From Amoebophrya sp. A120 (Eukaryota > Protista > Dinoflagellata), in contig CAJINV010000002.1 in assembly GCA_905178155.1 (NCBI GenBank), positions 9,125,412-9,189,411 on the forward strand: 64,000 bases of DNA. The letters are read 5' to 3'. The notes beneath the pieces were generated by a model. That model was not told the DNA's origin. It saw nothing but the letters and a program-made list of their open reading frames with translations, and did not search any database. Below are positions 23,197 to 61,503 of the stretch, piece after piece. Position 1 is the stretch's first letter, and the number at the start of each line of letters is the position of its first letter. The position numbers were made by a program, and so were the translations under genes.

Positions 23197-26100
23197 ATGA
23201 TATCCGACCAGGGCGGCGGGTCGTCCTCGGCTGGCGGCGCCACTTCCAGCGGGAGTGGCAGCCAAAACAAGCGGAACAAGACCCAGCAGAGCAGCAACCT
23301 GAGCGTCAATCTCCCACTCTTGAAAAAGATAAAATTGTCCGAGGAGGCGCTATGGTCCTTGTCCGAGAGCCGCACCAACCCGGCGCAGGCGAGCGCGAAG
23401 AAGTGGAGCAACAAGAGCGCGTCGTTCGGCAGCCTAGAGCAGTACGACCACAAGCACAACACGTGGAAATTTTCCGAGAACGACAAGCTGACCAAGGGGG
23501 ACTACCACTTGGCGAAGCTGGCCAAGTCCATCCACCACGCGAAGAGCCTGGAAAATCTGAAGATAAACGCGCCGAAAATGGTCTTTCAGTCGGAAAAGAA
23601 GGAGCGGGAGGAGGTCGACGAGGACGCGCTCTGGGCGGAGAATAAGCATTTGCTCCAGCTGCACAAAATGTACGTGCCCCAGCCGGTTTTGGGAGAGGAA
23701 CTCGCTTCGAAGACAACGGAGGAAGGACCGCCAACCAGTCCAGAGCAGGGCCCGGAATCCCCCGGGGGGTTACAAGTCACCTTCGAAGCAGACGAGGAGG
23801 GGGAAAAGTCCAGTTTGGTCGCGCACACGCCCGTCGGGCCGATCAGCCGGGACGTGGCGATGAAGCATTTGTTCGCCGAGTCCGCGGAAATGGACGTGGA
23901 GGCCATAACCGAGGAGCAGATTATGAACATAAGAACCGGCGACGACGCCATAAGTTTCTTCGCAAGGAACTCCGCGACGACCCGGTTGAAAATAGTCTAC
24001 TGCAACCGAATACCCCCCTCGCCGGTCGAGTTCCGCCCGTACGACTTAGTAGTCGTGCCGGAGAAGAAGGCGGACCCGGAGTACTTCACCATCTCCCCCA
24101 CCGGCATAGTCCACTGCCAGCCCGGGCAGGCGAGCGAGTACTTGTCGATCCCGGAGTGGATAAGCGAGTCGCTGAACTACAACGTGATAGTCTCCATGAA
24201 CACGTTTAAAAACTACGTCCCGTGGAAAATCTTCGGCAGCTGGCGGAAGAACGCCCGGTACGACGTGTACAAGCAGAAGAGAAAACAGCTGGCGAAGAGG
24301 TTGTTCCTCGTGAAACCTTTGTTCGCGCAGGACCTCGCCAAGTGCTTCCAGGCCCGGCACGAGCTTTGCAGCAGTGTGAAGGTGCTGGCGCTGACGGACC
24401 CCAAGAGCTACCAGCAGTTCAGCTACTTCCAACTGCAGGAGTTTATCGACCTGCAGAAGGCCATACAAACCACCGCGGGGAAGGAGTTGGAAGCCAGGCA
24501 CGACCACTTCGTCTCTCTCCTGGATGCGTTGATCCACAAGGTGGTGAAAGCCACGGGGGTCGGCCAGGACGAGACCGCCGGGAAGGACCCGTTCCTTGAC
24601 GACGCCGCCGCGAAGACCAAGTCGATCGTGCAGCTGAAGTTAGAAGCGAAGGAGCGGGCGCGGAGAAAAAAGCTGGCGATCCACGACCAGGGCATGATTC
24701 AGGAATGTATTCAGCTAGTCGACTACATCTTCCAGTCCTGCTCCGTGCAGATCATGATTGACGCCGCCAAGGAGTTCTACATGCGCATCGAGGGCGATCC
24801 GCGACAAGCGGCGAACCGGTTGTTTTCCGTAAATGTGAAATTCGCGGAAAACTTGCATCTACTGGAAAAAGACTCCGACACCGGGATGCAGCTGGAGCCA
24901 GACGCGGACGCGTTCGGCAAGATGCTAAATAACTTGTGGCAGTCGGCGATCGCGGTGTTAACTTCGGTGCCGCAGTTCATCATGTGCCGGCAGTACGAGC
25001 AGCACCTGCGGACGATCGATCTGCGGAACATGCAGGGCACGCAGCTGTCGATCAACGAGATTTGCCGGGACAACTTGGCTTTTTCCGACTTCACCATGTC
25101 GGTCTTGACGAAAATAACCTCAGAGCTGGAGCGCGCCGGCACCTACGCGGACGAGACGTTTCTGAAAATGTACCGGCCCGTGTACGAATTCGGTCTGCAG
25201 TGGGACGAGATCGTCTTCCTCCAGCACCACACGCAGGACAACGTCGGAGAATTAGACGTCGCCATGGCGAAAATGCGCGCGTTTGAGGAGGCGGTCGAGA
25301 AGTGCCGGGTGAGCCACAACGTCGGGTTCATCTTGATCGACGCAAAGGGGCTGAAGAACGAGCTGACGCCGATCCCGGAGAAGGCGCTGCAGTGCATGAA
25401 GCAACTGCTGAAGACGATAGGCAGCACACTGTGCGGCGAGGCAAGCAAGGCGTTTGAGGGGGTGAATAAGATACTGGATCAGAGACCAGATAAGTTGTCC
25501 AACTACGCCCAGTTTGTGCACAATTTCACGGAGATTCTGACCAACAAGGAGTTCTTGATCAAACAGAGGGACCAGGTGGAACAGATCTATTCCATGCTGA
25601 CCAAGGTGTACAAAGTGAACATCAGTTTGGAGGATCAAGTGCAGTTGGAATCGATGCAGCTCAAGGGGAACGACTTTGTGCAGACGAAGCTGCAGGAAGC
25701 GAAGCAGTTCATGACGGACACGTCCAACAACATGCTCGACGAGAACAAGCAGAAGTGCGTGCAGGTCGAGGAGCAGTGTCAGGTGATGCAGGAGGAGCTG
25801 CTGAAGGAAAATTTCATCGACGTGGAAAACGTGTACGACCCGCAGAAGACGCTCGAGGTGCTCACCGCGTTGGAGCAGATCGTATCAAATGCAAAAATGT
25901 CTGGGTCTGGAAACTTGCGTTGGGAATAGTGAATGCTCTGTAATGCACAGCCAGGCATGAGAAATATCTGCGCTTCTTTGTGTTGCGTTTTTCGCATGAC
26001 AAACTGCGTTTTTGCATGACAGGCAAAAGGGTTTCTTCTTGGACACGCATCACAAAATTTTTGGTCATGCCAGACACGCATGACAAATCTCGCCATCTTC

Positions 26101-29100
26101 CAGACCCAGACACTTTTGCATGTGATAGATCGAGGAGAAACTCGATTTCTGCGAGAAGTCCGCGGCGACCTTCACGAACTACGAGGATTTGTTCAAGCTC
26201 CCGGAAGAGGAGAAGGGCGCGGTGGATTTGGGGCTTGGAGACGAGATGGAAGAGGAGGGCGACGTGAAATTTGAGTTCGTCATGATGGAGCGGGCCCGGG
26301 AGCTGTTCAACTCGCAGATGAAGCTGTGGGAGATGGTGTCGCAGTGGAACGACTTGACCAGGAAATGGTCCCACTCCGACTTCACAACGTTAGATGCGGA
26401 AGTGATGAACAAACAGACCGCGCAGTGCTTTAAGGTAATTTCTATTTTGCTTTTGTTTCTTGTTTTCGATTCTGTACACTATGTCTGTTTGATCGAACTC
26501 GCAGGAGCCTGCAAATGCAAATCGGAAGCAAAACGAGCCAGTACTATGAAGATGCACCTCAGGTTTTTTATTTCCAATTTTCCCCATACTAAGTAAAAAC
26601 TAAATCCTAAAACCCGAACTCCTTCAGGTCGCCTACGGTCTGGAGAAGACCTTTGGCCCCAAGAACCCGAAAGTCGTGAAGGCGGCACGGGAATCCATCG
26701 AGAGATGGCGTGGCAACATGGGCAGCATCATGGATCTCGGGAACCCCGCCATGCGCCCCCGGCACTGGGAGAAGCTTTTCAAGGCGATGGGGATGGGCGG
26801 CAACGTGAAGGGGATGTCCATCACTCTAGCGCTTTTAGAGAAGAACGGCATCTTCGCGCCCAACCTGAAGGAGCTGATCGGCGAGGTCTCGGCCACGGCC
26901 TCCGGGGAGTTCGCGCTGGAGCAGTCTCTGGATAAGGTGATCGCGGTGTGGTCCGACTGGAACATGCCCATCCAGAACCACCGAAACCAGAAGGACCTGT
27001 TCATTTTGGGCGACGTCAGCGAGATTATCGTGCAAATTGAGGACCACTGCGTCACCATCGCGACCATGATGGGCAGCCGCTACATCGGCGGCATCAAGGA
27101 AAAGGTGGAGATCTGGATGAAAAAAATCTACAACGCGGCGGACATCTTGGACGAGTGGATCATCATGCAAAGGGCCTGGATGTACCTGGAAAACATCTTT
27201 TCCGCCGAAGATATCCAGAAGCAGCTGCCAGGTATAGAATTAAATTGGTTCTACTTTGACTTCTTCATGTCTGTGTTTGTTTTTGTTTGAAATGCTCACG
27301 CTGGGCCAATGCATGATTTTGCCTCGCCTACTGCAGCTTTGAGGACTGCATATCAGCGGTATTGATATTGACGACTACGCCAGTGACGTCTAAATTCTGT
27401 GAGGCCGAAGAGATTCACTTCGAAAAACCCTTCTTTACAGGTGAGACCACGAAGTTCAAGCAGGTGGACCGATTTTACCGCGAGCTGTTCCGCAAGGTGA
27501 AGTCAAAGCAGTACCAGAACGCGATGACGGCGATGAACATGCCTGGTTTGAAGGACCAGCTTACCTGGGCCAACGAGACGCTGGACGCGGTTCAGAAGTC
27601 GCTCGAGGCGTACTTGGAGACCAAGCGCCAGGGCTTCCCGCGGTTCTACTTTTTGTCCAATGACGAACTACTTTCAATTTTGTCGCAGACCCGAAACCCC
27701 CGCGCGGTGCAGGAGCACTTGGTGAAGTGCTTCGACAGCATCAACCACGTGAAGTTCACGGAGGCCAACACCATCACCGGCATGCAGGACCACGTCGGCG
27801 AGCACGTGGCGTTCGCGAAAATTGTGGAGACCACGAAGCCGGTCGAGCACTGGCTGTGCGACATCGAGATGCAGATGATCGAGGGCCTGTACGTGGACGC
27901 GGCCGCCGCGGTCGGGACCTACCCCGAGGACGGGCGGGCCCGCCGGGAGTGGCTGTTCGGGCCCACGGCGAGTCAGAACATCCTGTTCATCGACCAAATT
28001 CACTGGACCAGCGAGACCGAGGCCGCCATCGTGGCCATGGAACAGATGGACGCGGCGAGCTTAAACTTCAAGCCGATGGAGAACAACATCCAGTTTCACA
28101 ACGAGCAGCTGGCGAACTCCGTGCTGCTGGTGCGGGAAAACCTGACGAAACTGCAGCGGACGCTGATGGGCGCGCTGATTGTGCTGGATGTCCACGGTAT
28201 CACCGTGCTGGAAAATCTCTTGGAGGACAAGTGCCACGCACTAAACGATTTCAACTGGTCGAAACAGCTGCGGTACTACTGGTACACGGGCGAGACGCCA
28301 CTGGTCACCTCCATCGGCAACGAGGTCAGCGAGGACTGCATTCTGCGGCAAACCATTTCGTCTTACAAGTACAGCTACGAGTATTTGGGGAACACACCGC
28401 GGCTCGTCGTCACCCCCCTGACGGACAAGTGTTACATCACGTTGACGGGCGCCCTGCACTTGAACTACGGCGGTGCGCCCGCTGGGCCGGCCGGAACGGG
28501 GAAGACGGAGACGACCAAGGATTTGGGAAAAGCGCTTGCCGTGCCAGTGATCGTGTTTAACTGCTCCGACGGGTTGGATTACAAAATCATGGGTCGCTTC
28601 TTCTCCGGACTCGCACAGGCGGGCGCCTGGGCGTGCTTCGATGAGTTTAACCGTATTCCGGTCGAGGTCCTGTCCGTGATTGCGCAGCAAATGTTGACCG
28701 TGACGCAGGCGATCCGGCAAAGGAGAAAGACCTTCGAGTTCATCGGGCAGAAAATTCCGTTAAATACTCGCTTCGGTGTCTTCATCACGATGAACCCCGG
28801 TTACGCCGGGCGTGCGGAGCTCCCCGACAACCTGAAGTCGCTGTTTCGCCCGGTCGCGATGATGGTGCCAGATTACGCACTGATCGCCGAGATCATTCTC
28901 TACTCCGAGGGTTTCGGCGAGGCCAAGGGACTTTCGAAAAAGATGGTGAAGATGTACTCGCTCGCGTCCGAACAGCTGTCCAAGCAGGACCACTACGATT
29001 TCGGTATGCGCGCCGTGAAGTCCGTGCTGGTGATGGCGGGTCAGCTGAAGCGAAAGTTCCCGGATCTCCCCGAGAACGTCACTCTGATCCGGGCGCTCCG

Positions 29101-32100
29101 TGACTCCAACGTGCCCAAGTTCCTCGCACAGGATCTGCCGCTGTTTATGGGAATCATCACAGATTTGTTCCCCGGGGTGGACATTCCGAACGTGGACTAC
29201 GGCAATTTGGAGCTCGAGGTGAAGCAGCAGCTCGTGGACGCGCGGTTGCAAACCGTGCCGGCGTTCGTGACCAAAATCATCCAGCTTCTGGAAACCCAGC
29301 TCGTCCGCCACGGTGTGATGATCGTTGGGCTGACGATGTGTGGCAAGTCGACAAACCAAGTCACGCTGTCAAAATCTTTAACCTCGCTGAAGAAGAAGGG
29401 CGGGGAGACCGCGGACCCGACGTATCAGTTGACCAAGGTGTTCACGCTGAACCCGAAATCCGTGACAATGAACGAACTGTACGGGTCCTTCAATCTCAAC
29501 ACCGGCGAGTGGACGGACGGGTTGATCGCGATCCTCGTCCGCGAAGCGGTGTCGGACACCACGGACAACAAGAAGTGGGTGAACTTCGACGGGCCGGTCG
29601 ACGCGATCTGGATCGAGAACATGAACACGGTGCTGGACGACAACAAGATGCTTTGTCTGGCGAACGGGGAGCGGATCAAGTTGCCCCCGACGATGACCAT
29701 GATGTTCGAGGTGAACGACCTGGCCGTCGCCTCGCCCGCGACCGTGTCCCGTTGCGGGATGGTGTACATGGAGCCGGTGCACCTCGGGTGGAAGCCGCTG
29801 ATCCACGAGTGGCAGCTGAACTTCAGCGACTACAACCCGAAGTGGGCGAAGTTGCTGGCGCCGGCGATCGAGAAGTTCTGCTCGCACTTGATCCCGTTCT
29901 ACCGCGAGGAGCTGAACGAACCCACCGGGTTAGAAACGCTGGACAACCAGATTGTCCACTCTTTCCTGAAGTTCGTCACCACCTTCGTGTCCGCGAAACA
30001 CGGCATTTTCTCCGCGGAGGAGGACGGACTGAGCGACAAACCGCCAGAACAGACGCAGAAGCACGTGAAGCTCTACTGCGTGTTCGCCTGCATCTTCACG
30101 CTCGGTGGCAACCTGCACGAAAAGTCGCGGAAGAAGTTCCAGCAGCACATGCGGCCCGAGTTCGAGAAGTTTCTGGGGCCGGGCGTGTTGCCCGACGAGT
30201 CCGTCGACATGTACGCGCTCTGCGTGGACGACGAGAACGTGGCGTACCAACCGATCGGGGAAATCGTGTCGGAATACCTCTACGATTCCGAAGTGCCCTT
30301 CTTCAACATCCTGGTCCCGACGGAGGAGACGACCAGTCAGCGATTGCTGTTGGAGAACCTGATGCACGCCGGCTTCCACATTCTGTTCGCGGGGGACACG
30401 GGCGTGGGGAAGAGTGTGGGGATCCAGCAGTTTTTGAACACGTGCGGGGAGTCCTACTCCGTGACGACCGCGAACTTTTCCGCGCAAACCAGCTCAGCGA
30501 ACGTGGTTGACATCTTCGAGAACAGTCTGGAAAAGAAGAGGAAAAACCTGCTGGGTGCGCCGCCCGGCACCACGATGTTGATGTTCATCGACGATTTGAA
30601 CATGCCCCTCGTCGAGGTGTACGGCGCGCAGCCGCCGATCGAGTTGCTCCGCCAGGTGATGGACCAGGGCGGGTTTTACGACCGGAAAAAGCTGTTCTGG
30701 AAAAACGTCCAGGACACGCAGTTCATCACCGCGTGCGGTCCGCCGGGCGGCGGCCGGAACAAGGTGACCCCGCGGCTGATGCGGCACGTGAACATGGTGT
30801 GGATGCCGGCGTTGACCGTGAACGCGATGAACACCATTCTGAGCAGCATCCTCGGCGGGTGGCTGGGCACGGTGAAGCCCTCGCTGCGCAAGTACTCCGC
30901 GCCGTTGACCAAGGCGACCGTGGAAGCCTACTTTCGCATCACGGCGGACCTGCTGCCCACCCCGCTGAAGTGCCACTACACCTTCAACTTGCGCGACCCG
31001 GCGAAGATGATCCAGGGGATGATGATGATCGACGTCAAGAAGGGGTTCGAGAACCCCATGGACCTGATCAACCTGTGGATGCATGAGGCCTGCCGCTGCT
31101 TCCGCGACCGGTTGATCAACGAGCAGGACTGCAGCTGGTTCAACAAGATGATCTTCACCAAGCTGAAGCAAAGCGTGGGCGCGGACTTCCCGGAGGCGCT
31201 GCCGAAGGACCTGGATGTCGACGACATCGCGGAACTCGTGTACGGCGACTTCATGGACCGCGTGGACAAAAAGTACATCGCGGTCCCGGACAACGCGAAG
31301 ATGCTCGAGGTGTTCGGCGAGTTTCTGGAAGAGTACAACATCACTTTCCCGACCCAGATGAACTTAGTGTTCTTCTCCGACTGCCAGAAGCACCTCGCCC
31401 GCATGTGCCGCGTGCTGCGGCAGCCGCGCGGGAACGCGCTGCTCGTCGGGGTCTCCGGGGTCGGGCGGAAGTCCATGGCCCGGCTCGCGGCCTTCATGCA
31501 GGAGATCGCGCCGTTCTCGATCGAGATCACGAAACTGTACGATTTGCCGCAGTTCAACGAGGATATCAAACTGATGATGTTCCAGGTCGCGAAGGGCACG
31601 CCGACGATGTTTTTGTTTTCCGACACGCAGATCGTGCGGGAGACCTTCTTGGAGAACATCAACAACATCCTGAATACCGGCGAGGTCCCGAATCTGTTTG
31701 CGCCGGACGAGCTGAACCAGGTGGTGGATTCCGTCCGGCCCCTCGCGAAGGCGGCCGGGAAGCCCGACCAGAAGGACGTATTGCTGCAGTACTTCACGCA
31801 ACTGGTAAGAGAGTCGCTGCACATCGTGAACGCGTTCTCGCCCGTCGGCGACGGGTTCCGCGCGCGGTGCCGACAGTTCCCGTCCTTGATCAACTGCTGC
31901 GCCATCGACTGGTACAAGCCGTGGCCGGCGGACGCCCTGTACTCGGTGGCGGAACGGTACTACAAGGCCGCGCCGAAGGAGCTGAACATCGCGGACACCG
32001 TGGACCAGCTGTCCCAGCTGTCCTGCACGATCCACTCCACGAGCACGGAGTACGCCGACAAGTTCTACGAGGCACTGCGGCGACGCACGTACACGACGCC

Positions 32101-35100
32101 GACGAGTTACCTGGAGCTGATCAAGCTGTTTTGCGACCTGCTGGGACAGAAGCAGGGGGAGCTGAACAGCAAGCTGGACCGGTACCGGATCGGCGTGCGG
32201 AAGTTGGGCGAAACGCAAGTCATCGTGGACGACCTGAAGAAGCAGCTCACCAAGATGGGGCCGGAGATCGAGCAGGCGAAGATCGACACGGCGGCTCTGA
32301 TGGAGCAGGTGGAGAAGGACCAGAAGATCGCGTCCGAGCAGGCGGCGGAGTGCGCGGTCGAGGAGAAAAAGGCTCTGGGGCAGGCCGCGGAAGCGAACGA
32401 GATCAAGAACAGCGTGCAGAAGGATTTGGACGAGGCGCTGCCGGAGTACTACAAGGCGATCAAGGCGCTCGACTCACTGGACAAGAAGGACATCACCGAG
32501 GTGAAGTCCTTTGCAAAGCCGCCCCCCCTCGTCGAGACGGTTCTGTGTGCGGTGTGTCTGCTCATGGGCGAGAAGGAGAACTGGGACAGTGCGAAGAAGC
32601 TGATGAACAAATCCACGTTTCTGGACGACTTGAAAACCTACGACAAGGACGCGCTCGCCCGGGACAAGAAGAAAACGGAAAAGATGCAGAAGTACACGAA
32701 ACGAGAAGACTTCCAGCCCGACGTGGTGAAGAAAGTGTCCAACGCCGCGATGTCGCTGTGCATGTGGGTGCGCGCGATGGAGGTCTACGGGCGGGTCTCG
32801 CGCGAGATCGAGCCGAAGAAGGTCAAGCTCGCGGCCGCTGAGGAAGCGGCGGCGATCGGCGAGGCGGCATTGGCAAAGGCCAAGGGAGAACTCAAAGTCG
32901 TCACGGATAAGGTAAGTCTGCTTCCCACCACGATAGGACGAGTGATTGTACCAGTGTGTTGTGTGTTGCTGTGCTTATGATGAAGATGATCAACAATCAT
33001 GATCAGCATCCTCGCCAGAATTAGAATGAATGAATGTCAAAATCAGGTCGCTGCCCTACGTCAGAAGCTTTTTGCCGCAAAAAGGAAAGCAGAGCAGCTC
33101 GTGAAGGATGCAGATATGTGTCAAGTGAAGCTGGGCCGCGCAGAGGAGCTCCTGAAAGGTAACAGAATACAACTTTATTTGCGATGATGACAAAAGAAAT
33201 TACAGGAGACTATTATTTTCACTTCTGCGTAGGTTCAAGAGCATTTCCATTTGACGAGGCTACTGTCTGAAAAGCACGTACAGAAAAGCAAAAATGCAGC
33301 TTCTTTTTCCAAAATTCAACAGGTCTTGGCAACGAGGCGGTCGCGTGGGAGAAGCGTTCCACGGTGCTCGAGAAGGCGGTCGGTTTTCTGGTTGGGAACA
33401 TTATGCTGGCCGCCGGCTTCATCGCCTACATTGGTCCCTACACGGCGGAATACCGCGCCGAGCTGATCGACATGTGGCGCAACAAGGCCAAGGAGATCGA
33501 CATCGTGGCGGATCCCGACTGGGTGTGCGCCGATGTGCTGGTGGACCCGGCCGAGGTGCGCGCATGGAACCTGGCGGGGCTCCCGCAGGACGACCTGTCC
33601 GTGGAGAACGGCATCATGGTGACCCGCGGGCGGCGGTGGCCGCTGATGATCGACCCGCAGGGCCAGGCCAACCGGTGGATCCGCACCATGGGGAAGGACA
33701 AGAACATCCAGGTGATCAAGCTCTCCAACCCGAACTTCCTGCGCACCCTCGAGAACGGCATCCGGTACGGGAACGCCATTCTTCTGGAGAACGTCGAGGA
33801 GGTGCTGGACCCGTCCATCGAGCCGGTGCTGCTGAAGCAGATCTTCAAGAAGGGCGGCCAGTTGCTGCTCCGCTTGGGAACGGAGGACGTGCCCTACAAC
33901 GAGGACTTCGCGTTCTACATCACCACCAAGATGACCAACCCGCACTATTTGCCAGAGATTTGCATCAAGGTGACCGTGATCAACTTCACGGTCACGCCCA
34001 AGGGGCTCGAGAACCAGCTGGTCGCCGACGTGGTGGCCAACGAGAACCGGGAGCTGTCCGAGCAGAAGGCGTATCAAGTGTAAAAGTGTCTGGGTCTGGA
34101 AGAATGCAACTTGTCATGCTGTCTTTGGATTCCAAAAAAATCTGTATTGCGTGACCAACAACAGGAGTCCAGTTTGTGGCACGCGGAGAGGGCATTTCTC
34201 ATGCGGAATAGGCATCAGGAAGGCCTCTAAAGATATGCGATGCTAGACCATGCATTACAGACATCCTGAGTCATGCAAAATATGCATTACAAACCCAGAC
34301 CCAGACATTTTTGCAATCCATAAGGCGGCCTTGGTGGTGCAGATCGCCGCAGACAAGGCGGAGATGGACCGGCTGGAAGCGCTGATTCTGAAGCTCCTCG
34401 CGGAGTCCAAGGGCGACATCCTGGACGACGACAAGCTCATCAAGACGCTGGCCGCGTCCAGCGTGACCGGCGCTGAGGTGCAGCAGCGCATGGTCGCCGC
34501 CGAGGAGACGCTGACCAAAATCGACGAGGTGACCGAGACGCTGCGGCCGACCGCAACCAGGTTGTCGATGCTGTACTTCTGCATCAGCTACATGGGCTTG
34601 ATCGACCCCATGTACCAGTATTCGCTCGAGTACTTCGCTGCTCTCGCCAAGGGCCGGCTGCAAAAGTCGGAGCAGAGCGAGGACGTGAACAAGCGGATCA
34701 TGATCATCATCGAGGACGTCACGAAGTCGGTGTACCTGAACATTTGCCGCGGGCTGTTCGAGGACCACAAAATGATCTTTTCCTTCATGATCGCGTGCGA
34801 AGTGTTGAAGAACGCCACGCACGCCAACTACATGGGCCGCACGCCCATCGCCACCATGGAGTGGGCGTTCCTGCTCCGCGGCGTGGAGGCCGGGAAGGGC
34901 GTGCTGGACAGCGCGCCCGCTGCCAGCGCGGAGGGCGACGAGGGCGAGGCGGTCGCAACATCACCCGGCGTGCCGGCGGAGATCCCAGCGGAGAAGTGTC
35001 CCAAGTGGCTGCCGTCGACTGCGTGGGAAAAGCTGGCGTGTCTCGAGCGGCTCGCCCAGGTCGGCGGCGTGGACAGCTACAAGGGGCTGTGCGACAGCAT

Positions 35101-37884: not shown

Positions 37885-40177
37885 AAGGTACTGCTTGCTA
37901 AGTACAGCGGCGCGTCGAAGGGTCATACGGTCGAAGTTTTTTCTTTTACCGCGTCGAATGTGCTAGCTCGGCAGCCGTTGTGCAGCTGCATAGTCGTCGT
38001 CTCTCAAGCAGGGTTAGTTTATCTTACTCTACTGCATATGTTCGACTTCTCCGCCGCGGTTGTGTCTCACGACAGAACCGATGCGTGTTGTTGAACTGCC
38101 TACTGCATTTGTCACCTCGTGCACAGAACTTCTTTGTCTCCATAGTCAGTACCAAGAACTTTTCATCCTAATAGCTAACTAGCGCAGGCGATTTGGTAGG
38201 AGGAAAATAAACAACTAGACTTGTCTCTCCTCTAATTCTCTTCGGGCTGGGACAGGTTTTAGTTTTGAAATTCAGTTTGCATTTGCTCCATTTGACTCAA
38301 CGACTCAACTATTCAAAGGCAAGATTTGCGATTTGGATTTGCGATTTTTACCTAAGATTACAGTTTACAGAAAGCCGGTAGCTGGTCGTGAACCTAGCAA
38401 AGGCTGAACAGACTTCTAAGTTTATGCAAGATTACAAAAAAAAAAAAGCACGATCACTTTACAAGAGAAATACGATAGCCACAACGCGGGCGAGCTGCGT
38501 GAGTTTTTACCAAAGTATAAGAACATTGCGTCTGGTTATGAAAAATGTACTCAAGACATATATCCCGTTTTAGTTCTTTATTGCACAGCAAAATGTAGTT
38601 GCGAATACAATTCCATTTCCAATATGAACTTCCTCCTGGAGCAGGAGCATGCTATCCGAGGAAACGAAAATAAGAATGTCGAAATCGAAACTTTATCCAG
38701 AACTATTTCTGTGAATGACAGTGAACTTCAAGAAACTCCTCGTAGTCACCGCAGGAAGGTGAGAAGCTAGCTGCAGCATCCCCAAAGCATCCCGACAAAG
38801 GAGCTCTCGAAATTACATTCGGTGCTGCAACGTCCTATTACAGAACAACCTTGGAACGAAAAAAGGAATGGACTGTCGGTTTGCGTCTTACGACTTCGGC
38901 TGCGTTTGTCGTTTTCGTTTGTGGTCGGTTCGTCGTTCGTTGAGAATTGTTAAGTCGTTCATTCGTGGTACGTTGGAGAAAAAATAAAAACATCTCAATA
39001 TTAAATAACTGCCCGGGGTGCGCTCGTACGTGCTAAAAAAATCACTTCGTTCACCGCTTCTACAGTCATTACTTATGGCGTGGGCACTGATCAAACACGT
39101 TCGACGTACCTTATTTCCCCATGCTTGCTGCAGAGACCCACTTATACTTATTACTTATGTTTTTGTTTTTCCAGTTTCACCCCATTTCGGAATCATCGGC
39201 TTCACGAGCACGCGTTGCTTTCGACACACGACATCTCAGTGCGCACAGCAACCTCTTTGGCACTGTAACTGGTTCTGGTTGTTCTCATAGATCCAACCAA
39301 AACCCGCCAGACCACTGTCCAGTAGTTTTACACTGTTGAAAGGAACAAGAGCCGCGAGGACTTGTCGTGCTTGACCCCTACCGCCTCAGTATTCGGAACG
39401 CACATAAATTTTCTGCTGCAAGAATAAAGTTAAAGAAAAATGGCAGGAGACAAGAAGAACAAAGAAAACTCCCTTCGGGGCCGGTTTTCGAAGTACGCCT
39501 GTCGGAAGCGTGGTACGGTACTGAAAGAGGCTCTCGCGCCAGACTTTTCTCTGCGTCCATACGTGTTAAAAAATGCGCGATGTGTTGCGAAAAAGTATTC
39601 GCATCAGCAAATACAGCACAGTATTTGCATCAGCAAATACAGCACAGGCTACGTAGAGATTATGACGTGCAAGTGAGGTAAGTATAAAATTAAAAAGCGC
39701 AAAGTAAGGAGAGAAATTGTTTGTTGCGGGTGCGAATTTCATTCGTATACAGGGTCGCAGGCTTGCCTTTGCGGAGTTCGGCTTTGCCTGGTTTTTTTCG
39801 ACGCCGGCGCAGCCGGCGGAAGCAGAAAAGCAGGGTCGACCGGGCTTCATGCAGCGGCGTCACCAGGTAAAATATTGATATTCCACTTTGATTGAAGCGT
39901 GTTTACTTTGGAAGGCAAAAAATTCTTGATGTTGGTGCACCACCAGAAAAAAAACATGATCAGATGTATTGTCATGATTTTGGTCTTGAGTTCCCTGAGT
40001 TTGTGTTTTTTTCTCCGTTATAATTTCTCTCTAGCCGCGAAGAAGACCAAGACGATGATTGAAGATCAAGTTGAACAGCGGAAGCGTCAACTTTTCTTCA
40101 TCATCGTCAAATCTTTTTTCAGTGCAAGCGAAAGGCTTGGTCATTGTGGATAAGTACTTACACGATCCTACGTCGAG

Positions 40178-51900: not shown

Positions 51901-54900
51901 AATCCGCGCGCTCGGCGCGGTAGATACCCCCCCGCCGTTCGGGTTTTAGCTGCCACTGGCGTCATAAATTGCGTTCTACAATCTCCTCCTGATGATTTTC
52001 ATTTGTTCTTTTTGTGTATGGTGCGTGAGAGCTTGCACTCATTTTGGCCACGTTGTGGTAGTTTTGCAGCATGCACGCACAAACGGGATTCTTGAAAGCG
52101 GAGGGTGGGGGGCGAGACCCCCATTTAGTCGCCGCGGCGCGAAGCCGCAAATCTCGCGCTCACGTCCACCATCAGAAGTGTTCCAGCACGGGGCCGCTCC
52201 ATGAATTGAATTGAGTCCACCGCCAAGTAGTCGGTTTGAGCGGTTTCACGGCGTCAGCGACCGTTTTCCGGCCTATCGGCCTGCTTCCGAACCTGCTCAC
52301 TCTCCGCCACCCAAGGTCGACATTTGCGGTTATCCCGACGTTGCTGCAGACCCGATAGCTACCGATAGCTCCGACGTGTCGAATTCACATGGCCACCGGT
52401 GAAAGCTTCCCGCTCGTCCTCAACCCGCTGCTGCGGCGCCCTGTCCCTGGTCCTCTACTTACCCCCCGCAGCTCCATCTCGAACTTGCTGATGCCGTTTT
52501 CCGGAAAAGACTAGTTTATGGTGCTGGTGGTCAAAAACCTCGTTCTCCACCTGCTGCTTCGCGAAGCGCCATGGATGCAAAGGGGAATTTTCCCACATTC
52601 CGCTTTGCGCATGGTACGCACGGGAAGCAGCACATACGGGGGACAAGGGGCGCGACTGCCAGCGCCCGCGGACCGGGGCGGGGTTCAACGGCCCCAGCTT
52701 TCCCGCTGCTGCACTACCCGGGCCAGATCACACGACCTTCCTGTACTTCGGCTACCTCAAGTTCCCACTCGTCCGGCGGACTGTGCCTGTACTTCGCGGC
52801 CGTTTTGAGTGGTGTTTTTACGCTCCGCCCTACTCGACTCCCCGTATGCGGTCGGACACCTCCAGCTTGCTGTGCGCCACGTGGCGAGCCGGTTCCAACT
52901 ACAAGTCGTCCGCCGACACGGGGCAGAACTTCGATTATCACTGACGGCGGGGCAGATAGAACTACTTCATCACTTCCACCGGAGGGCTCAACGGTCCCGC
53001 CCCTTCCCCCCTCGTTCGTTCGTAGTACTTCGTTGTAAAAAATTAAAAGTAGTGCTTTGTCGTAAGCGAATAGAGTACTTCTACAACCGTTTTACCAGCC
53101 GCAGGTTTGCATCTGCGGCTACTGCTACTCTGCAAACGCCCGGTGTATTTTTCAAAAAAAAACATGATCTGCCTCGCTGCTACCGGGGTTAGGACGTACC
53201 TCATTCAGGGCGGGCGGTAGCTAAATGCAGACCTGTGCGGGCTTATGTTTTCTGAAGCGCGCACACAGTCACTAGCGTAACGCAGTAGCTTAATCATTTC
53301 TGACCGTTTTACGAACTTCGTCAAAAAATCCGGGGCTGCTTCCTCCCGCAGTAAATAGAAGGGTTTAGGTGTTTAGGGTTTTCCGATTCAGAAAAAAAAG
53401 TTCTTCGTCATCGTGGAAAAAACTGGATCGGACGTGTGCCGCTGCTACCGGCTCGACACGTAGAAAACGAATTTCGCGCGTTGTGCGGGAGTAGCTACCC
53501 CTCCCCTGCTTCGGGTTGTAGTTGCCACGGGCGTCATTGATTGCGGTCGACAATATCCTTTCCCGATGATTTCCATCTCTACGTTTGTGTATGGTGAATA
53601 GGAGCTTGCTCCTTGTTGTGCCGCGGTGTCGGAGGTTTTGCAGCATTCACGCACAAACAGTATTTTTGGAAGCGGAGGGGGGGTGCGGGACCCCCATCAA
53701 GTCGTCGCGGCGCGAAGCCGCAAATCCCTGGTTTTCGTTCACCATCAGAAGTGTTCAACCGGCGGGGCGCTCCACTGAAACTGAAACTGAGTCCAGTCCT
53801 CCCTTGGCAAAAAAAAAAAAAAAAAATTTAGCCTGACAAGTTCTGATCTTCCAGACCCAGACATTTTCGCATTTGATACGGAGCTGGCGAAGACTAAGAC
53901 CAAGCACGACGAGGAGCTGCGGTTGTTGCAGAGCGAGTTGGTGTATCAACTGTAAAAATGTCTGGGTCTGGAAGAATCCAACTTGTCATGCTGATTTTGG
54001 ATTCTAAAAAAATCTGTATTGCATGAGCAGCAAAGAGAGTCCAAGTTTTGCTACACGGAAAGAGCGTTTGCCATGCGGTATAGGCATCAGGAAGCCGTCA
54101 CAAAATCTGTGATGCTAGGGCATGCATCACAGACATCAGGAGTCATGCAAAATGTGCATGACAAACCGAAACCTGGCAATCTTCCAGACCCAGACACTTT
54201 TACATTTGATATGGTGATGCTGGGCAAGCGCCAGCAGGAGGCGGCGCAGGAAGCGGAAAAGGGCCGCAAGACTGCGAACCAGGCCGAAGTCGAGCAGTAC
54301 AAGGCCGTGATCGCGCAGCAGGCCAAGCAGATAGAAGGTTTGGAGAAAGGTTTCGCGCTGTCCCACGAAAAGCTGAAGTCGGAGCTCGAAGCCAAGTTTC
54401 TGCGCCAGGACGCCGAGGTTCGGCACCAGATCGCGAGCTCGGTCGAAACCGTATCTTCCGGTGTTTTCAGCCTCAGGGAGGAGCAAAAGGAGGCGAAGCG
54501 ACTGTTCGAGGAACACGTGCAGACCGTGCTAGCCGAGAAGCTGGAGGAGAAGAGCAACAGCGTACGTAACAAACCAGTCGATGCCGCGGGGTTGTCCGAG
54601 CGACAGCGGGAGCACGTCCTGCAGTTGGTGAAGGAACTCAAGCTGGAAGAAGTGCTGGAACGGAAAATTCACAGCGAACTGGATCTGTTGCAGGAGTCGG
54701 TCGAGTATCAAATGTAAAAATGTCTGGGTCTGTAAACTTGTCATGCTAAATCTGAAGCATGCAAAAATCTCTGTTGCATGATTACCAAAAGTCGTCCAGT
54801 TTTGACCAAGTCGGGAGGGAGATTCTCATGCAGGATAGGCATGAGAGAGATCGCACAGAATCTGTCATGCTAGGTCCTGCATTCCAGACCTCATGGGTCA

Positions 54901-56687
54901 TGGAAAAGCTGCATGACAAGTCGCGCACTCTTCCAGACCCAGACACTTGCATTTGATATCGAGTTGGAGGCCAGCATGCAGAAAAATCGCGTCGATGCGC
55001 TGGAGCGGCTGGTGCGAAACAGGAAATCCTCTGCAAGCGGCACTGCATCAACATCATCCTCGAATAAAGCGCTGCTGGGAGCTGCAGCTCCAGGTGATAA
55101 TCAAGAGCAGGAATTTTTGTCTGAGCCCGACCGGCAGCTCGCGCTTGTCAGCAGGAGCGCCGCAACTGCAGCGAACGGGGGCAACTCCACCGTGCAGGAT
55201 GCAAAGGCGCTGTTGGAAAGCACGCTGGCCGTGCGGGAGGCAAAAGTGGCTCTGCAAAACGAAGGGGCAAGAATAAACACGAAGCTGCTGCAATTCGACG
55301 AGAAAGAGGCGAGACTGCGGAAGGAAGTAGAGTCCCTGCGAGCGGAGTTTCAACGGGTACATTTGATGTTTTTTACTATCCGCAATGCTGCGACGGTGTT
55401 TTGCGTTTGCCTGCTGCACTGCTGACGAGAAAATCAACACTGCATCGATCGGTACTTCTATATTCGTTTGACGATATCGTGGTCTGGTCACCGAAGACAA
55501 AATGAAAATTTATGATAAAACGTTCTTCATCATCATCTTCAGCTCCAATCCGGGTCGGACCAGATGAGTCGCACAGTGGCGGAGTTGCAGCGCCTTGGCG
55601 AAACGAGGATCAAAGACTTGCAAACCAAAGTGCAGCAAGCTGTGACCCCGCGGTACCCGGGGATGCCGCCTCCCGGGCCCGCAGGCGGAGTGAATAGTTC
55701 GACGTCGCAACAAACTACAAGCCAGGTGGCACAGCAAGCACCCGCCGCGAGCGGGACGACCGCGGCCGTGAACCAAACGCAAACACAAACGCAGCAGATC
55801 GTAGCTGCCGCGGGGGATCCGCTGAGCAACACGGCAGCCGGCAATCGGCAAATCACCATGCAGCAGACGACGACCTACAGCACGAATTACAACGTCGGGG
55901 CCGCACCAGTTGTGGGCTACACCCCAGCAGGGCACTTAGTACCCACACTGCACCAGCCCTTTCTCGTCCGCCCGCCCGCCTATCGTACAGAAAACGCAGC
56001 TAGCATCATGTCATGTGTAGTGTAAAATTTTGCATGCGAACAGCCAGTTCATTCTCATTGTTTCCGGTTCTCAGTATGGCGGGGATTCATTTTTAGAAAG
56101 AGCGTCCTCCCACGAAATTATTTTTGTCTTGCAGTGCTTGCTTCCATGTGTGTCCATCGTACTTACGTGCAATTGATGATAAGTAAGTATGTTGGTGTTC
56201 ATCTTCAGCTTGACGCTGTGCTATTTCTTTTCTCTACGATACTCCGGGAGCGCAACCGGCGACTACAGTTTCTGACGCGGATTACCTGCAGGCCCTGTAC
56301 CGAAACCTGGAACTGCAGACGCCGCAGGTCCCGCAACTCCAGCTCCTGCTTGGGGACGTGGAGCAGAAACAGGACTACGCGAATGATCTGAATGTCCAAA
56401 CAACAAACTACAACAGCAGGAGCCCAGGCACTACTACCAGTGCGGTGCTTGGTTATTTGAATAAAGGGGAGGGACTTCAGGAATCGAATTTGGAAAGAAA
56501 ACCAGCGGGTGTAGTTTTGCCGAATGCAACTACGACTAAGACCAACTACGACTACGAAGTAGTAAACCAGAATCCGTACGTGATGAATACGACACAGACT
56601 GCGTTGCAGCCGGTCCGCGGTCCACAGTCGTACTTGCAGCAGACCCCGGGTGGCGCAGACGACACCGGCGGCTGCGGAGTGCAGTGA
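42935..56687 (+). CDS. Coiled-coil protein gene interrupted by three introners (one 10.2 kb) and canonical introns
   Basis: Heptad-rich exons ~43078-43257, 43552-43683, 53884-53943, 54217-54705, 54964-~55356, ~55543-55982, ~56240-56687. Across introners it reads in frame: VQAE|LAKTKTKHDEELRLLQSELV|MLGKRQQ...ESVE|LEASMQK. The start is uncertain. Confidence 0.75.
44570..44828 (+). repeat. 5' LTR of copia
   Basis: TGTGGACC...GGACCACA; about 8 substitutions versus the 3' LTR, counted by eye. Confidence 0.95.
45020..45878 (+). pseudogene. gag: Copia gag (frameshift near the 5' end)
   Basis: ATG 45020; LPTFSGKDEDYADYRFQLRAYL in the shifted frame; zinc knuckle CYVCGSESHYARDC; TGA at 45876-45878. 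Confidence 0.85.
45879..49316 (+). pseudogene. pol: Copia pol (protease, integrase, reverse transcriptase, RNase H) split by ~3 frameshifts
   Basis: PR FVVDSAA; IN HERRGH..CHAC, DLVGP, RSDNGLEF, QNGKCERFN, KGVFVGY; RT LDIAQAF, LRKALYGL, YVDD; RH TDSDFA, STCEAE, CDN, TKHFDVK, SDFLTKAL. Confidence 0.92.
49740..49998 (+). repeat. 3' LTR of copia
   Basis: Direct repeat of 44570-44828, preceded by the PPT and followed by the GGGGG TSD. Confidence 0.95.
51400..53790 (+). repeat. Three diverged ~350-400-bp direct repeats inside the poly(A) insertion
   Basis: GTGTGCCGCTGCTACCGGCTCGACACG...CGCGAAGCCGCAAATC...CACCA(T)CAGAAGT units start at ~51410, ~51860 and ~53430. Confidence 0.8.
53944..54211. mobile_element. 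Introner-like element, family A (268 bp)
   Basis: Family A TIRs; TSD TGGTG; in-frame TAA inside; removal restores ELV|MLGK. Confidence 0.92.
54706..54958. mobile_element. Introner-like element, family A (253 bp)
   Basis: Family A TIRs; TSD TCGAG; removal restores ESVE|LEAS. Confidence 0.92.
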
Positions 56688-57707
56688 AAGGTTGCGGCTT
56701 ATCAGGATGCAGGCCGACTTTTGCATTTTTAGAAGAATTTGTGGCTCATCTTCGGTGGACGGGGCAAAAGATAGAAAAACTACATCGACTTCGAGTGCAC
56801 CAAGCACTGAATCCATTGTCGCGTCGTCGCGTTTTTTCGTTTCACTTTCAACACATTGCGTCTAAACTTAGTTTGTTTCATCGTTGTCCTTCAACTTTGA
56901 ATGACGACTTCGCTAATTGTTCTAGTGCTAGGCCTGTAAAATTTTCCTGGTTTCACATTTCCACTCGTAGCGCGGCTGCAACATGCGATCTGGTGGTATT
57001 CATACACTGCTAGTTCGTTGTCTGTCGCCCATGACAGACGAAAGATGCAATCGATACGGGCGCATCTAGCAGGAAGATATTCGAAATGTACAGAAACGTT
57101 GTAGCGAAATTCATCGTGGTGCCATCCTCATATAGATACTTACCGCAACTGAGAGAGGAGAGAGTGAGTAAGGGAGGAAGTAGTTGGCTTCCTTCAAGGT
57201 CTTCAGAGCGCATTCATATTGTGTTCACGCAGATAAAATTGGTCCCACTACCAGCCGCGATGGCCATCATTGCGAATGACGGTGAGTAGGAAAAGCAAAT
57301 CTCACTGTACCGTACAGAAGCTGAAACTCTAACTCTCTTCCAGTACTTCGATGATACGTTTTTGCTTGACGCTCGGACAAAGCATCGCTTGATTTTCCTT
57401 CGGTGACCCCATCCACAATAACAATAAGTGCCATTGCCCTACCCAGGAACAGGATCCGGTTTATGTGCCCGAAAAAGTACCCTCACCCTCTTTTTGTAGA
57501 GCAGGATTTCTGATACTGATCGTGATGGGATTTCGTTTACAACGAATTGCAGGTGTCGCTTCACTTCTGGACAATACCAGCATGAATAACTAGAACTACA
57601 ATCACTGACGTTTATTCACAGTATTTGCTCGGGATCCACAGCGTCACCACTTTCGGTAATTTTGTGCTGAGTGTCGGTTCGATCTTCCCCGTCTTTCAAC
57701 ATTCAAG

Positions 57708-60700
57708 ATGACAGGTATCAAGGCCGTTGTGCCGGACGCAGTTCCGGAGATGCCCCAGTGGAAGACCACTGGGGAGCACATGTCCATTGCTGGCACCCTA
57801 ACCCTGGATACGTCCAAGAAGTGCTTTTCCGTACCTGGCGTGACGGACACGCCCACGTCGAGCACGACAAGTACCGCGACACCAGGAACGGCGGAGCTTT
57901 CGATCAACGACGTGTTTTTTGTCAAAGAAGGCAGTTTTGAGGACCACCGGGGCGACTACGTGAACGTGCCCGTGCCGTTTCCCGTGCTGGAAGGCGGGGT
58001 GGCTGCTTCGAAGAAGAACGTCGCCCGGGGGTTCCACTGTTCGCCCTTCCCGAAGGTGGTGGGGTGTCTAACCGGAAAAATGTATGACGTGTTACTGGAT
58101 CTACGGACGGCGAGCACGACGTTCGGAAAAATCTTCACCTGCACGTTGCTGCCGAAAAAGGGTATAATCTATAATTTCAGCTGTGATGGTCATGGTGAGG
58201 ATAAGCATAAGAAGAGCTCGGCTTCACCGCCTGTGGTGCTCGGATCTGTTCCTGCCTCTTTTGTAGCCATGATGTACGTAGTCAGTGATCATCAGCATGT
58301 CATTTCTGTCAACATTCTCGCTGCCGTTGCTATTCTTGATTACGAGGAACGAGTATAGTAAAAGCAGAAGCACACGGAAAAAAAAATCGACATCAAAACA
58401 GGCTACCTCTACGTGCCGGCCGGGGTGGCGCACGGGTACGTGGCCCTGGAGGATGACACGTTGACGCAGTACTACAAGGGGGATTTTTTTGATCCCGCGA
58501 AAGAGATCAACGTGAACATGGAAAGCACCGAATTCACCATTTTTGGCACCGCCTCCTTCCCGCTTAAGGCTGAAGACTTGATCTTCTCCGAGAAGGACAA
58601 GGCGCTGCCGAAGTTCGAGGACGTTTACGCGGCCTGTCTGGTCCCGAAAGAGGAGCAAAAACCGAAGAAGGTCTGGTACGCGCTATTACAGTGAAAAATG
58701 CCCCCACCCCCAAAGTTGCAAAAATGTGTGATGCGAAGTTTCCAAATGAAAACCTTTTGCCATGCATGAAAGGAGTATGAATCTTTCTGATGCAGAGTCT
58801 AGGCGTGTATCGCATCGCTTGCATGACAAGCGGTAAGCTTGGTGGAGTCTTCTGCAATACAAATTTTTGCTGTTTACGATTGGAAACCTGTGATGCTGAT
58901 AGATGCAAGAGGGCGAATGTTTCATTTGGAAAGGTTTGCAACACAAATGCTCCCAAGTAATTCGGGGTCGGGGGCATTTTTCATTGTAATACGCGCCCCA
59001 CAAGTTCGAGTCGTACGGGGACGAAGAGTATGAAATGCAAAAGTGTCTGGGTCTGGAAACTTGTAATGCAAGTCAGCCAATAACAAATGCAGTGTAATGC
59101 GCCGCCAAGCATGACAAGTTGCTTCGTGGTTCTGTGCTGCGTATTCCGCATGAGAAACTGCGTTTTTGCATCACAGGCGAGAGAGGCTGTTTGTGGCCAC
59201 GCAATACAGATTTAAGGGCCATGCCAGATCAGCATGACAAATCTCGCAATCTTCCAGACCCAGACACTTTTGCAGTTGATAAAGAGATGATGGCGGTCTC
59301 GCGGTGTCTGCGCGCAGGCTGGCTCGCGCCGGGCCCTATGGATTGCAAAAATGTCTGGGTCTGGAAGATTGCCAGGTTTGTCATGCAGGTTTTCCATAAC
59401 ACATGAGGTCTGGCATGTAGGACATAGCATGACAGATTCTGCGAAACCTTTCCAATGCCTATCCTGCATGAGAAACTGCCTCTCGATTAGCTCAAAAGTG
59501 CACAATTTTTGGCAATCATGCAACACAGTTTTTTGCCTGATTCAGATTTAGCATTACAAGTTGCATTCTTCCAGACCCAGACATTTTTACAGTTGATAGG
59601 CCCGCTGACCTCCCTGTTCCAGCAGAAGGTGTCCAAGTACTTCGGGAAGAAGTACGGCCTGTACGTATCCTGAGTAAAAACGTACCCACACCAGAGTTGT
59701 AATGCAGATTTGCAAAGACAGGAAGACTTGTATTGCGCATCTCCATGAGAGCCATTTCCAATCGTGTTGTGGAATTTGTGATGCTGTGAACAGGATGAGC
59801 AGATGAATCTGTGATGCGGCTGCACTTGTTAACCTGCACTACATTGCATAGTGCAACTTGTCATGCGTGACTCACAAAGCTCCTAGGTTTGTGTTGCAAA
59901 ATCCCCATCCTGGCTCTGGTGTGGGTACGTTTTTACTCAGGATAGTACGTGAATTCCGGGTCCTCGGCGAACCTGATCGGCATGGCCATGTGCGATATGC
60001 CGGCCGGCAGCGAGATCATCACGCCCGCCTGCACCTTCAGCACGGTGTTGGCGCCCATTGTGCAGCTGGGGTTCAAACCCGTGTTTGTCGACGTGGAGCT
60101 GAACAGCTACGTGCCCACGCTGGAAGCGATCAAGAACGCCATCACGGAGAAGACCAAAATGCTGATGATCCCGAATTTGGTGGGGTCGAAGATCGACTGG
60201 AAGGAGATGCGGCGGATCGTGGAGGAGGACCTGAAACGGGACGACATCATTCTCTTCGAGGACTCCCTATCAAATGTAAAAATGTCTGGGTCTGGAAGAA
60301 TGCAAGTTTGTCATGCTTGTCTGCCATGACTCTTAAATCTGTCATGCACATTACCAAAGAGCCCCACTTTTCTGTCATGGAGAAACGTAGTTTGTCTTTG
60401 TCATGCAGAATAGGCAACACCTAGAAGCTCAGAAACTTGTCATGCTGAGCCAGCAATTGTCGCCTCCTCATGATACGCCACACAGCATCACAAGTTTCCA
60501 GACCCAGACGTTTTTCGGTTTGATACTCCTGCGACTGCATGACGTACACGGAGGAGTCCGACATCTCCGCGATCTCCTTCTACGCCTCCCACATCATGAC
60601 GGGCGGTGGCATGGGCGGCATGATCATGATGAACACGGAGAAGCTGCTGAACAAAGCCTTTCAGTACCGGGACTGGGGCCGCATCGGCAACAACGACGAG

Positions 60701-61503
60701 GACATGGCCGAGCGGTTCAAGCAATCCGTCGACGGCATCGAGTACGATGGGAAATTTTTGTACAGCGTGGTGGGCTACAACTTCAAAGCGTGCGAGATGT
60801 CGGCGGCCTTCGCGTTGGCCCAGATGGAGAAACTGAACCGGTTCACGGAAATGCGGAAGCAGAACGTGCTATTCTGAGTAAAAACGTCCCCACACCAGAG
60901 TCAACATGGGAAGTCTGCTAGACAAATCAACCAGCTTTGGTTGTTTGGCATGACAAGTCTGTCCGCGTAGTGTAATCCTGTTTAGCTAGTTCAGAAGCAT
61001 CACAGATCTAGCATAGCATGCGGATTCTAGCATCACAAATCCCGAAACACGAGCTGAAAGCTCTTCGCATAGGGCTGCGCATGAGAAACTTTTTTAGCGT
61101 GCAGAATTGCATGACAGCTATGGGGTGGGGACGTTTTTACTCAGGATGCGTGCGCATGTTCTACGAACGGCTGGAAGAGTACCACAGGCAATCCGGCAAC
61201 AAATCCCGGTACGTCCTCCCGCGGCCCGACTACGATTCCTTGGACTGGCTGGCCTTCCCGCTGCAGCACCCGAACCGAACAAAGTTGATCCGCTATCTGG
61301 AGTCCAACCAGGTCCAGATCCGGGTGATCTTCAGCGGGAACGTGACTCGACACCCCGCGTACCGACAGTATTTAGATACTTATCCCAACAGCGACAAGAT
61401 CATGGAGCAAGGTTTTCTGCTGGGCGCGCACCACGGCCTCGCGGAAACAGATATCCAGCGGGTCCTCGACTTGCTCATCAAATTCGACCAGGAGGAAGTT
61501 TGA
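57708..61503 (+). CDS. Fusion protein: RmlC-like NDP-4-keto-6-deoxyhexose epimerase + DegT/DnrJ/EryC1/StrS-fold PLP/PMP enzyme (ColD/RfbH-like 3-dehydratase)
   Basis: RmlC motifs EDHRG, ARGFH, GKMYDVLLDLR, YVPAGVAHGY. Then KKVWYAPHKFESYG, WLAPGP, YVNSGSSANL, TPACTFST, PVFVDVE, EDSCD, SFYASHIMTGGGMGG, YRDWGR, VGYNFK, RVIFSGNVTRHP. One GT-AG intron (58162-58401) and six introners. Confidence 0.9.
58684..58991. mobile_element. Introner-like element, family C (308 bp)
   Basis: TIR TATTACAGTGAAAAATGCCCCC / GGGGGCATTTTTCATTGTAATA; TSD CGCGC; removal restores VWYAPHKF. Confidence 0.92.
59029..59281. mobile_element. Introner-like element, family A (253 bp)
   Basis: Family A TIRs; TSD AAGAG; removal restores YGDEEMMAV. 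Confidence 0.92.
59337..59598. mobile_element. Introner-like element, family A (262 bp)
   Basis: Family A TIRs; TSD GGCCC; removal restores WLAPGPLT. Compatible with an exact GC-AG intron 59333-59599. Confidence 0.92.
59666..59944. mobile_element. Introner-like element, family B (279 bp)
   Basis: Perfect 31-bp TIR TATCCTGAGTAAAAACGTACCCACACCAGAG; TSD GTACG; removal restores GLYVNSGSSA. Confidence 0.93.
60268..60525. mobile_element. Introner-like element, family A (258 bp)
   Basis: Family A TIRs; imperfect TSD CTCCC/CTCCT; removal restores FEDSCDCM. Confidence 0.9.
60870..61148. mobile_element. Introner-like element, family B (279 bp)
   Basis: TIR TATTCTGAGTAAAAACGTCCCCAC / GTGGGGACGTTTTTACTCAGGATG; TSD CGTGC; removal restores KQNVRMFYE. 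Confidence 0.9.

Follow-up and report, generated by a model that had tools for sequence, protein, structure and literature searches.

Introner elements of the dinoflagellate Amoebophrya sp. A120 were described by Farhat et al. 2021 (PMC7789003), whose account gives 29,850 copies in many families and mentions no internal transposase. Like the elements analysed here, they carry an inverted repeat (IR) reading TAT, seven variable bases and a run of A, share direct repeats of 3-5 nt, can potentially form hairpins and are removed with RNA support; that account covers introns of 40-1000 bp only and leaves open both the mechanism and the position of the border within the repeat. The A120 families described by Gozashti et al. 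2025 (PMC12130899) measure 150-320 bp, have terminal inverted repeats (TIRs) of ~30 bp and are classed as TIR DNA transposons of unknown superfamily; about half of their annotated ends are given as non-canonical, and the calls of carried or co-opted splice sites are automated, vary by family and hinge on the annotated borders. We analysed a 64,000-nucleotide stretch of A120 DNA (contig CAJINV010000002.1, positions 9,125,412 to 9,189,411; called the window below), in which eleven such elements lie inside three genes. They show the IR signature, direct repeat, genomic families and removal with non-canonical ends of A120 introners. Beyond what is described in PMC7789003, the register of removal, that is, the position of the cut within the repeat, is bracketed here, and a nested copy of 10.2 kb is exactly removed. 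The class is already known in Amoebophrya, as an earlier inspection of the letters alone (the sequence-only reading) had noted.

Comparable introns occur in other lineages. The nonconventional introns of Euglena share several features with the window elements (PMC12501133; PMC11282704): their ends are non-canonical, their terminal repeats pair at a set distance from the junctions, their borders are obscured by direct repeats, and they likely derive from miniature inverted-repeat transposable elements (MITEs). The Euglena code, given as N3CDG..CH'G N5-6, is reported as genetically defined (PMC12501133); neither its CDG/CH'G motif nor its purine rule applies here, where the ends read TAT/ATA and a stem of ~30 bp starts at +2. 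Fritillaria borealis also has introns that derive from TIR elements with target duplications and lack GT-AG, and the host spliceosome is reported to remove them; their ends are mostly AG-AC or AG-AT, whereas no dinucleotide dominates here (PMC11282704; PMC13326754). Introners of Micromonas, Aureococcus, Symbiodinium and Polarella are likewise DNA-transposon copies removed with one target duplication, but are described as carrying or co-opting real GT/GC/GA and AG sites (PMC9860276), whereas in the JACKZZ01 loci described below an exact GT-AG was possible, in the inferred register, in only 4 of 119 copies. In the literature searched (supplement figures and subscription papers lay beyond its scope), we found no fixed register, no exact removal of a 10-kb nested copy, no caveat about aligners of the kind given below and, as the sequence-only reading had supposed, no resolution of the excision mechanism.

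Inverted ends flanked by repeats were sought without bias, and the window was also queried with its own TIRs; this identified eight elements of family A, two of family B and one of family C (Table 1). Ten of them measure 245-308 bp; the exception, at 43684-53878, measures 10,195 bp. The TIRs are ~30 bp long, starting with TAT and ending with ATA (ATG at 61148 being the sole exception in the window), and the signature of TAT, seven variable nucleotides and at least three A is present, with TAT-N7-AAAA ends common to all families. The 5-bp duplication is perfect at ten elements and matches at four of five positions at 60268 (CTCCC/CTCCT). With TIRs, a duplication of fixed length and no coding capacity, the elements have the build of non-autonomous, MITE-like TIR DNA transposons. 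The GT/GC-AG termini of a U2-type intron were available as an exact solution in just two of the eleven (GC-AG at 34072 and 59337); GT-AG with one extra codon was possible at 25883 and 59666, and the remaining seven allowed no in-frame GT/GC-AG at the duplication. If element 25883 were retained, the reading frame would stop within it. Excision of each element with one duplication recovered open frames in all three genes; in the third, the restored frame spans 644 codons and holds PF00908 and PF01041 domains. The inventory of eleven elements and three families, the tally of splice options and the mending of the frames had all been proposed in the sequence-only reading and were reproduced, with the one imperfect duplication as an amendment. 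That the copy at 43684 owes its length of 10,195 bp to nested insertions had not been mentioned there.

The transcript evidence consisted of assembled contigs from four runs (X3-X6) on two samples of one study, whose RNA status is inferred rather than recorded. Their contigs do, however, skip seven GT-AG introns and barely cover a Copia element in the window. The DNA-like run X1, in contrast, gave flat ~45-fold cover with contigs that run into the elements, and no element joints were found among the rows listed. At all nine sites covered by RNA contigs, the skipped length equalled the element plus one duplication (element + 5 nt) exactly. A single 2489-nt contig of X3 (depth 429) lacks the six elements of the third gene together with one GT-AG intron, and one X5 contig (depth 76) skips 10,200, 273 and 258 nt in the second gene; across the four runs, these three joints were found in 2, 4 and 3 runs, respectively. 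In the dynein gene, 8.7-kb RNA contigs reach 6256 nt upstream of 35600 with no interruption, which suggests, by extension rather than by a direct joint, that element 34072 is removed too. These results showed that transcripts lose the element together with one duplication at nine sites, and they showed expression of the host genes.

At 59666, an in-frame GT-AG option of 281 nt was bypassed in the assembled contig and 284 nt were skipped instead. The removed copies occur in both orientations: by internal similarity, the family A elements 43684, 59029 and 59337 are opposite to 53944, 54706 and 60268, and the family B elements 59666 and 60870 are opposite to each other. Element 60268 was spliced despite its mismatched duplication, with the T of the downstream copy retained in the RNA; a perfect duplication is therefore not required. 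Because removal is independent of orientation and size, disregards GT-AG and tolerates a mismatched duplication, the element ends, not GT/AG dinucleotides, set the borders. The sequence-only reading had proposed that the TIR hairpin and the duplication, rather than splice dinucleotides, guide removal, and had suggested a check on transcripts. That check gave exact removal at every site covered, with neither retention, nor use of nearby canonical sites, nor unexpressed host genes at the nine sites. The part about dinucleotides held; a hairpin as opposed to the sequence of the TIR ends was not demonstrated, a perfect duplication proved unnecessary, and terminal bases may still play some role, given the weak strand-specific preference for A at the inferred -2 position.

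The largest copy is a family A element interrupted by nested insertions. Its joint (43678>53879) skips 10,200 nt exactly in runs X5 and X6. Within it lies a poly(A)-tailed insertion (43904..53826), ~4.5 kb without its Copia element and probably retroposon-like; DNA depth over the insertion was mostly 100-300 compared to ~45. The nested Copia element (44570-49998) has Pfam matches to gag_2, zf-CCHC, rve and RVT_2 and is almost devoid of RNA contig cover. An autonomous transposon was ruled out, as the open reading frames (ORFs) belong to the nested Copia element with its own long terminal repeats (LTRs) and duplication. Family 38 of PMC12130899, described there as flanked by TIRs and homologous to Copia, may have a nested build similar to that of 43684-53878. 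Nested insertions had also enlarged two family A copies elsewhere, one of 631 bp with an intact duplication (L055:808-1438) and one of 1255 bp with no matching duplication (L008:1501-2755).

A search with the TIR pattern in assembly JACKZZ01 yielded 156 independent loci (266 kb). They contain 239 TAT..ATA TIR pairs, 177 with a perfect 5-bp repeat and 24 with one mismatch. Repeats of exactly 5 bp (177) contrast with 2 of 4 bp and none of 6 bp; therefore the duplication is not due to chance. The elements form 11 clusters of at least two copies. One exon, encoded at a locus with the same TIR families, matches a protein named A120 at 100% identity. Gene strand was called by a coding model trained on the window, and filtering reduced 213 elements to 119 with a perfect duplication and a strand call, 117 with enough flank and 69 with a frame call. 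Element orientation relative to the gene strand was 63:52. Of the 42 copies oriented with confidence, three allowed an exact GT-AG and none a GC-AG. No transposase was evident, short of a scan of ORFs against families, at 13 unpaired ends among 326 TIR hits, and viral contigs gave no match to the TIR pattern. Two features of the window duplications were rejected on this sample. Five of the 11 window duplications have palindromic first four bases, compared to 2 of 42 gene-oriented copies and 9 of 168 unoriented ones outside the window; all 11 have G or C as their fifth base, compared to 66 of 119 outside it. Insertion phase was uneven, the first base of the duplication falling on codon positions 3, 2 and 1 in 40, 19 and 10 of 69 copies (45, 24 and 11 with the window included; chi-square p ~2e-5); in the inferred register this would correspond to phase 0.

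The duplication hides the junction unless its two copies differ, so mismatched copies are informative. We number the bases of the duplication n1 to n5. At 60268 the RNA carries the fifth base of the downstream copy, which places the cut at or before n4|n5. At locus L038, a Rab gene with the duplication TAGCT/TAGAT, the fourth base of the upstream copy gives Ala and that of the downstream copy Asp. Ala stands at this position in 90 of the 98 homologues (of 120 listed) that matched the motif used, including the A120 and A25 proteins, and Asp in 1 of 98; therefore the cut would lie at or after n4|n5. From these two cases, and if the register is fixed, the intron would be n5-TAT...ATA-n1n2n3n4, that is, N|TAT...ATA+4 nt. 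As a separate observation in loci L001-L145, ~12 of 17 oriented single-mismatch duplications were synonymous in the best frame, above the expectation for a free intronic copy, which could reflect some register variation.

Base composition at the inferred ends was examined in the gene-oriented duplications. The -2 position (n3) is A in 50 of 119 and T in 20 (flank A, 25%); after correction for codon position, A was found in 34 of 69 against 21.6 expected (P=0.001). This bias tracks the gene strand, not element orientation (by element, A 40 and T 53). n5 shows no bias, its share of purines (71 of 119) being close to that of the flanks. In ten copies with one deviant end (nine of 179, plus 60870), the T at +2 was unchanged in all ten and its partner was changed in six. 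The A at n3 and the constant T at +2 are faint, spliceosome-like traces. The commonest A120 intron ends in the published tallies are all NT and mostly AN (PMC7789003). When we simulated an aligner that slides within the repeat toward GT-AG, with a generic sliding rule, unbiased duplications gave the same top end classes. Accordingly, we count neither Farhat Table S4 nor the end counts of Gozashti in favour of the register; the published NT...AN classes can be an aligner artefact.

Our preferred explanation, held tentatively, is that these introns are small non-coding copies of TIR DNA transposons whose ends act as a ruler that sets fixed borders, with a relaxed spliceosome making the cuts. The intron would start 1 nt before the 5' TIR and end 4 nt past the 3' TIR, with ends reading NT...NN. 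The TIR would provide the invariant T at +2 and a donor-like TAT; pairing of the ~30-nt TIRs would keep the two ends together; and the 3' cut would be measured from the element end, not found by scanning for AG. The catalyst would be the host spliceosome with its check for GT and AG relaxed. By TIR symmetry either orientation would work, with the interior free and insertions coding-neutral, which would permit spread through exons. We favour a relaxed spliceosome because six of seven RNA-confirmed canonical donors start with GTA, resembling G|TAT, because of the traces at +2 and -2, because A120 is reported (PMC7789003) to retain U2, U4, U5 and U6 along with almost all proteins of the spliceosome, and because of the Fritillaria precedent.

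Several points weigh against this explanation. The register draws on two loci, one through protein conservation only, and assumes fixity, and the mismatch at L038 may be a single-base assembly error; the published end tallies lend the register no support. n3 is A in only 1 of 11 window elements, and the pooled count (35 of 80 against 25.1, P=0.012) is post hoc among 20 position/base cells. Of the six partner changes, four retain a U-G wobble, so pairing alone predicts them too, and several strand calls among the deviant-end copies are weak. The small nuclear RNA (snRNA) U1 is reported as undetected in A120 (PMC7789003). The transcript data are limited to contigs, in which rare junctions are lost, and their RNA label is guessed. 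Finally, a stem of -35 to -54 kcal/mol, which the TIR arms can form by computation, would bury both splice regions and need opening. If an RNA stem were under selection, G-U should exceed A-C mismatches on the sense strand; no overall excess was found (121:112 in 138 copies), nor did duplex energy differ between sense and antisense. TIRs vary less than interiors (2.0% vs 3.0%), which is explained equally well by constraint from a transposase on DNA. These figures do not demonstrate that an RNA hairpin is under selection.

A somewhat unlikely alternative is that separate, spliceosome-independent machinery reads the geometry of the TIR hairpin and ligates the exons, as proposed for the nonconventional introns of Euglena. 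It would account for the lack of usable terminal dinucleotides, the unbiased n5 and the undetected U1, and the inferred register pairs +i with -(i+3), an offset as in the N3/N6 form of Euglena. Rare TIR variants lean to wobble-keeping changes (30:17, p=0.08; against 47:55 in the interior, Fisher p=0.053). The strand-specific A at -2 and the unchanged T at +2, however, are the footprint expected of a spliceosome; the CDG/CH'G motif and exon-start purine of Euglena are lacking; and 15% of canonical A120 introns are reported to share the IR and direct-repeat build (PMC7789003), suggesting a continuum. A second splicing code in Amoebophrya that reads paired-end geometry only (1-nt 5' and 4-nt 3' overhang), across 10 kb and with neither U1 nor terminal dinucleotides, is a rather doubtful prospect; if it were true, every TIR insertion with a 5-bp duplication would become a scarless intron.

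We consider it quite unlikely that a relaxed spliceosome reads the sequence of the TIRs and not their pairing, with N|TAT as donor, a branch A in the 3' ATA (-7) and an acceptor at a fixed distance. The TAT-N7-AAAA ends shared by all families and the missing overall G-U excess would fit, and independence from orientation and size would be explained equally well. Many 3' ends read TTGATA, which we take to resemble the YTRAY branch motif. On the other side, the copy at locus L003 has G at -7, which would conflict with a branch A there if that copy is spliced, and rare variants are equally frequent in the 5' and 3' arms (47/2258 vs 45/2264), with no arm-specific signal. That the elements are not spliced at all (DNA excision, dead genes or hidden canonical sites) is highly improbable: the run types are guessed and the two dynein-gene elements lie outside the RNA contig comparison, but X3-X6 behave as expected of RNA, skipping seven GT-AG introns and giving hardly any cover of Copia, X1 enters the elements with flat cover, and the joint lengths equal element + 5. 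For nine sites this reading is refuted.

Because of the duplication, the cut position is unreadable from ordinary alignments. Copies with mismatched duplications can fix the register from existing RNA reads, and copies with deviant ends, nested insertions or opposite orientations are natural mutants. The choice between the relaxed spliceosome that we prefer and a separate hairpin-reading system thus becomes directly testable for tens of thousands of introns, with a bearing on how transposons turn into harmless introns.

Table 1. Elements, nested insertions and host genes in the window (window positions)
Feature	Position	Strand	Details
Family A element	25883..26127	+	dynein heavy chain gene; duplication GATCG; outside RNA contig comparison
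Family A element	34072..34322	+	dynein gene; duplication AGGCG; exact GC-AG possible
Family A element with nested insertions, 10,195 bp	43684..53878	+	coiled-coil gene; duplication CGGAG; joint 43678>53879
Poly(A)-tailed insertion inside the 43684 element	43904..53826		16-18 bp near-perfect duplication; from junction sequences
Decayed Copia LTR retrotransposon	44570..49998	+	TG..CA LTRs ~260 bp; duplication GGGGG; nested in the poly(A)-tailed insertion
Family A element	53944..54211	+	coiled-coil gene; duplication TGGTG; joint 53938>54212, 273 nt
Family A element	54706..54958	+	coiled-coil gene; duplication TCGAG; joint 54700>54959, 258 nt
Family C element	58684..58991	+	epimerase-aminotransferase gene; duplication CGCGC; 313 nt skipped in X3
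Family A element	59029..59281	+	epimerase-aminotransferase gene; duplication AAGAG; 258 nt skipped in X3
Family A element	59337..59598	+	duplication GGCCC; exact GC-AG possible; 267 nt skipped in X3
Family B element	59666..59944	+	duplication GTACG; in-frame GT-AG option 281 nt; 284 nt skipped in X3
Family A element	60268..60525	+	duplication CTCCC/CTCCT; joint 60261>60525, 5 letters ambiguous; translation EDSCD
Family B element	60870..61148	+	reverse orientation to 59666; ends ATG; duplication CGTGC; 284 nt skipped in X3
Host gene 1, dynein heavy chain	23176..37884 (approximate)	+	also canonical GT-AG introns; 2 elements
Host gene 2, coiled-coil protein	43018..56025 (approximate)	+	no Pfam match in scanned exon; 3 elements
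Host gene 3, dTDP-sugar epimerase (PF00908) + DegT/DnrJ aminotransferase (PF01041) fusion	57505..61700	+	six elements; one GT-AG intron

The third host gene encodes a fusion (57710-61500) of two enzymes, both typical of bacterial deoxysugar pathways, and bears six introners. In its interval 59221-59397, a 50-nt exon separates two facing TIRs with 82% complementarity (the right TIR of the first element, the left TIR of the second); the assembled RNA nevertheless retains this exon, and no joint skipping it was found among the joints listed.

Two runs of raw reads, X12 and X13, gave 203 and 3 matching reads, nearly all partial and on pieces of elements, and were uninformative on the host genes. 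An RNA from a different locus retains a short fragment from the 3' part of a family A element, bearing a single TIR (matching 43853-43904 and 54178-54212 of the window). It is represented by 184 reads in X12 and by contigs in X3-X6, consistent with a single end escaping removal.

Elsewhere in the window, RNA contigs from three runs on one sample leave out 241 nt at 39512-39752, with possible ends GG..AG or GT..GG. This is one base beyond an obvious GT..AG intron, with no TIR seen, and may reflect a non-canonical donor or a one-base assembly difference. An element of 589 bp, bounded by imperfect inverted ends and a 6-bp duplication (CGAGAT), lies between coding regions at 6033-6621 and is unrelated to the TAT families. 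A long non-coding stretch within a gene (17030-18770) contains four tandem units of 109 bp each and, at 18118-18361 and 18407-18496, small inverted-repeat units that carry 5-bp repeats.

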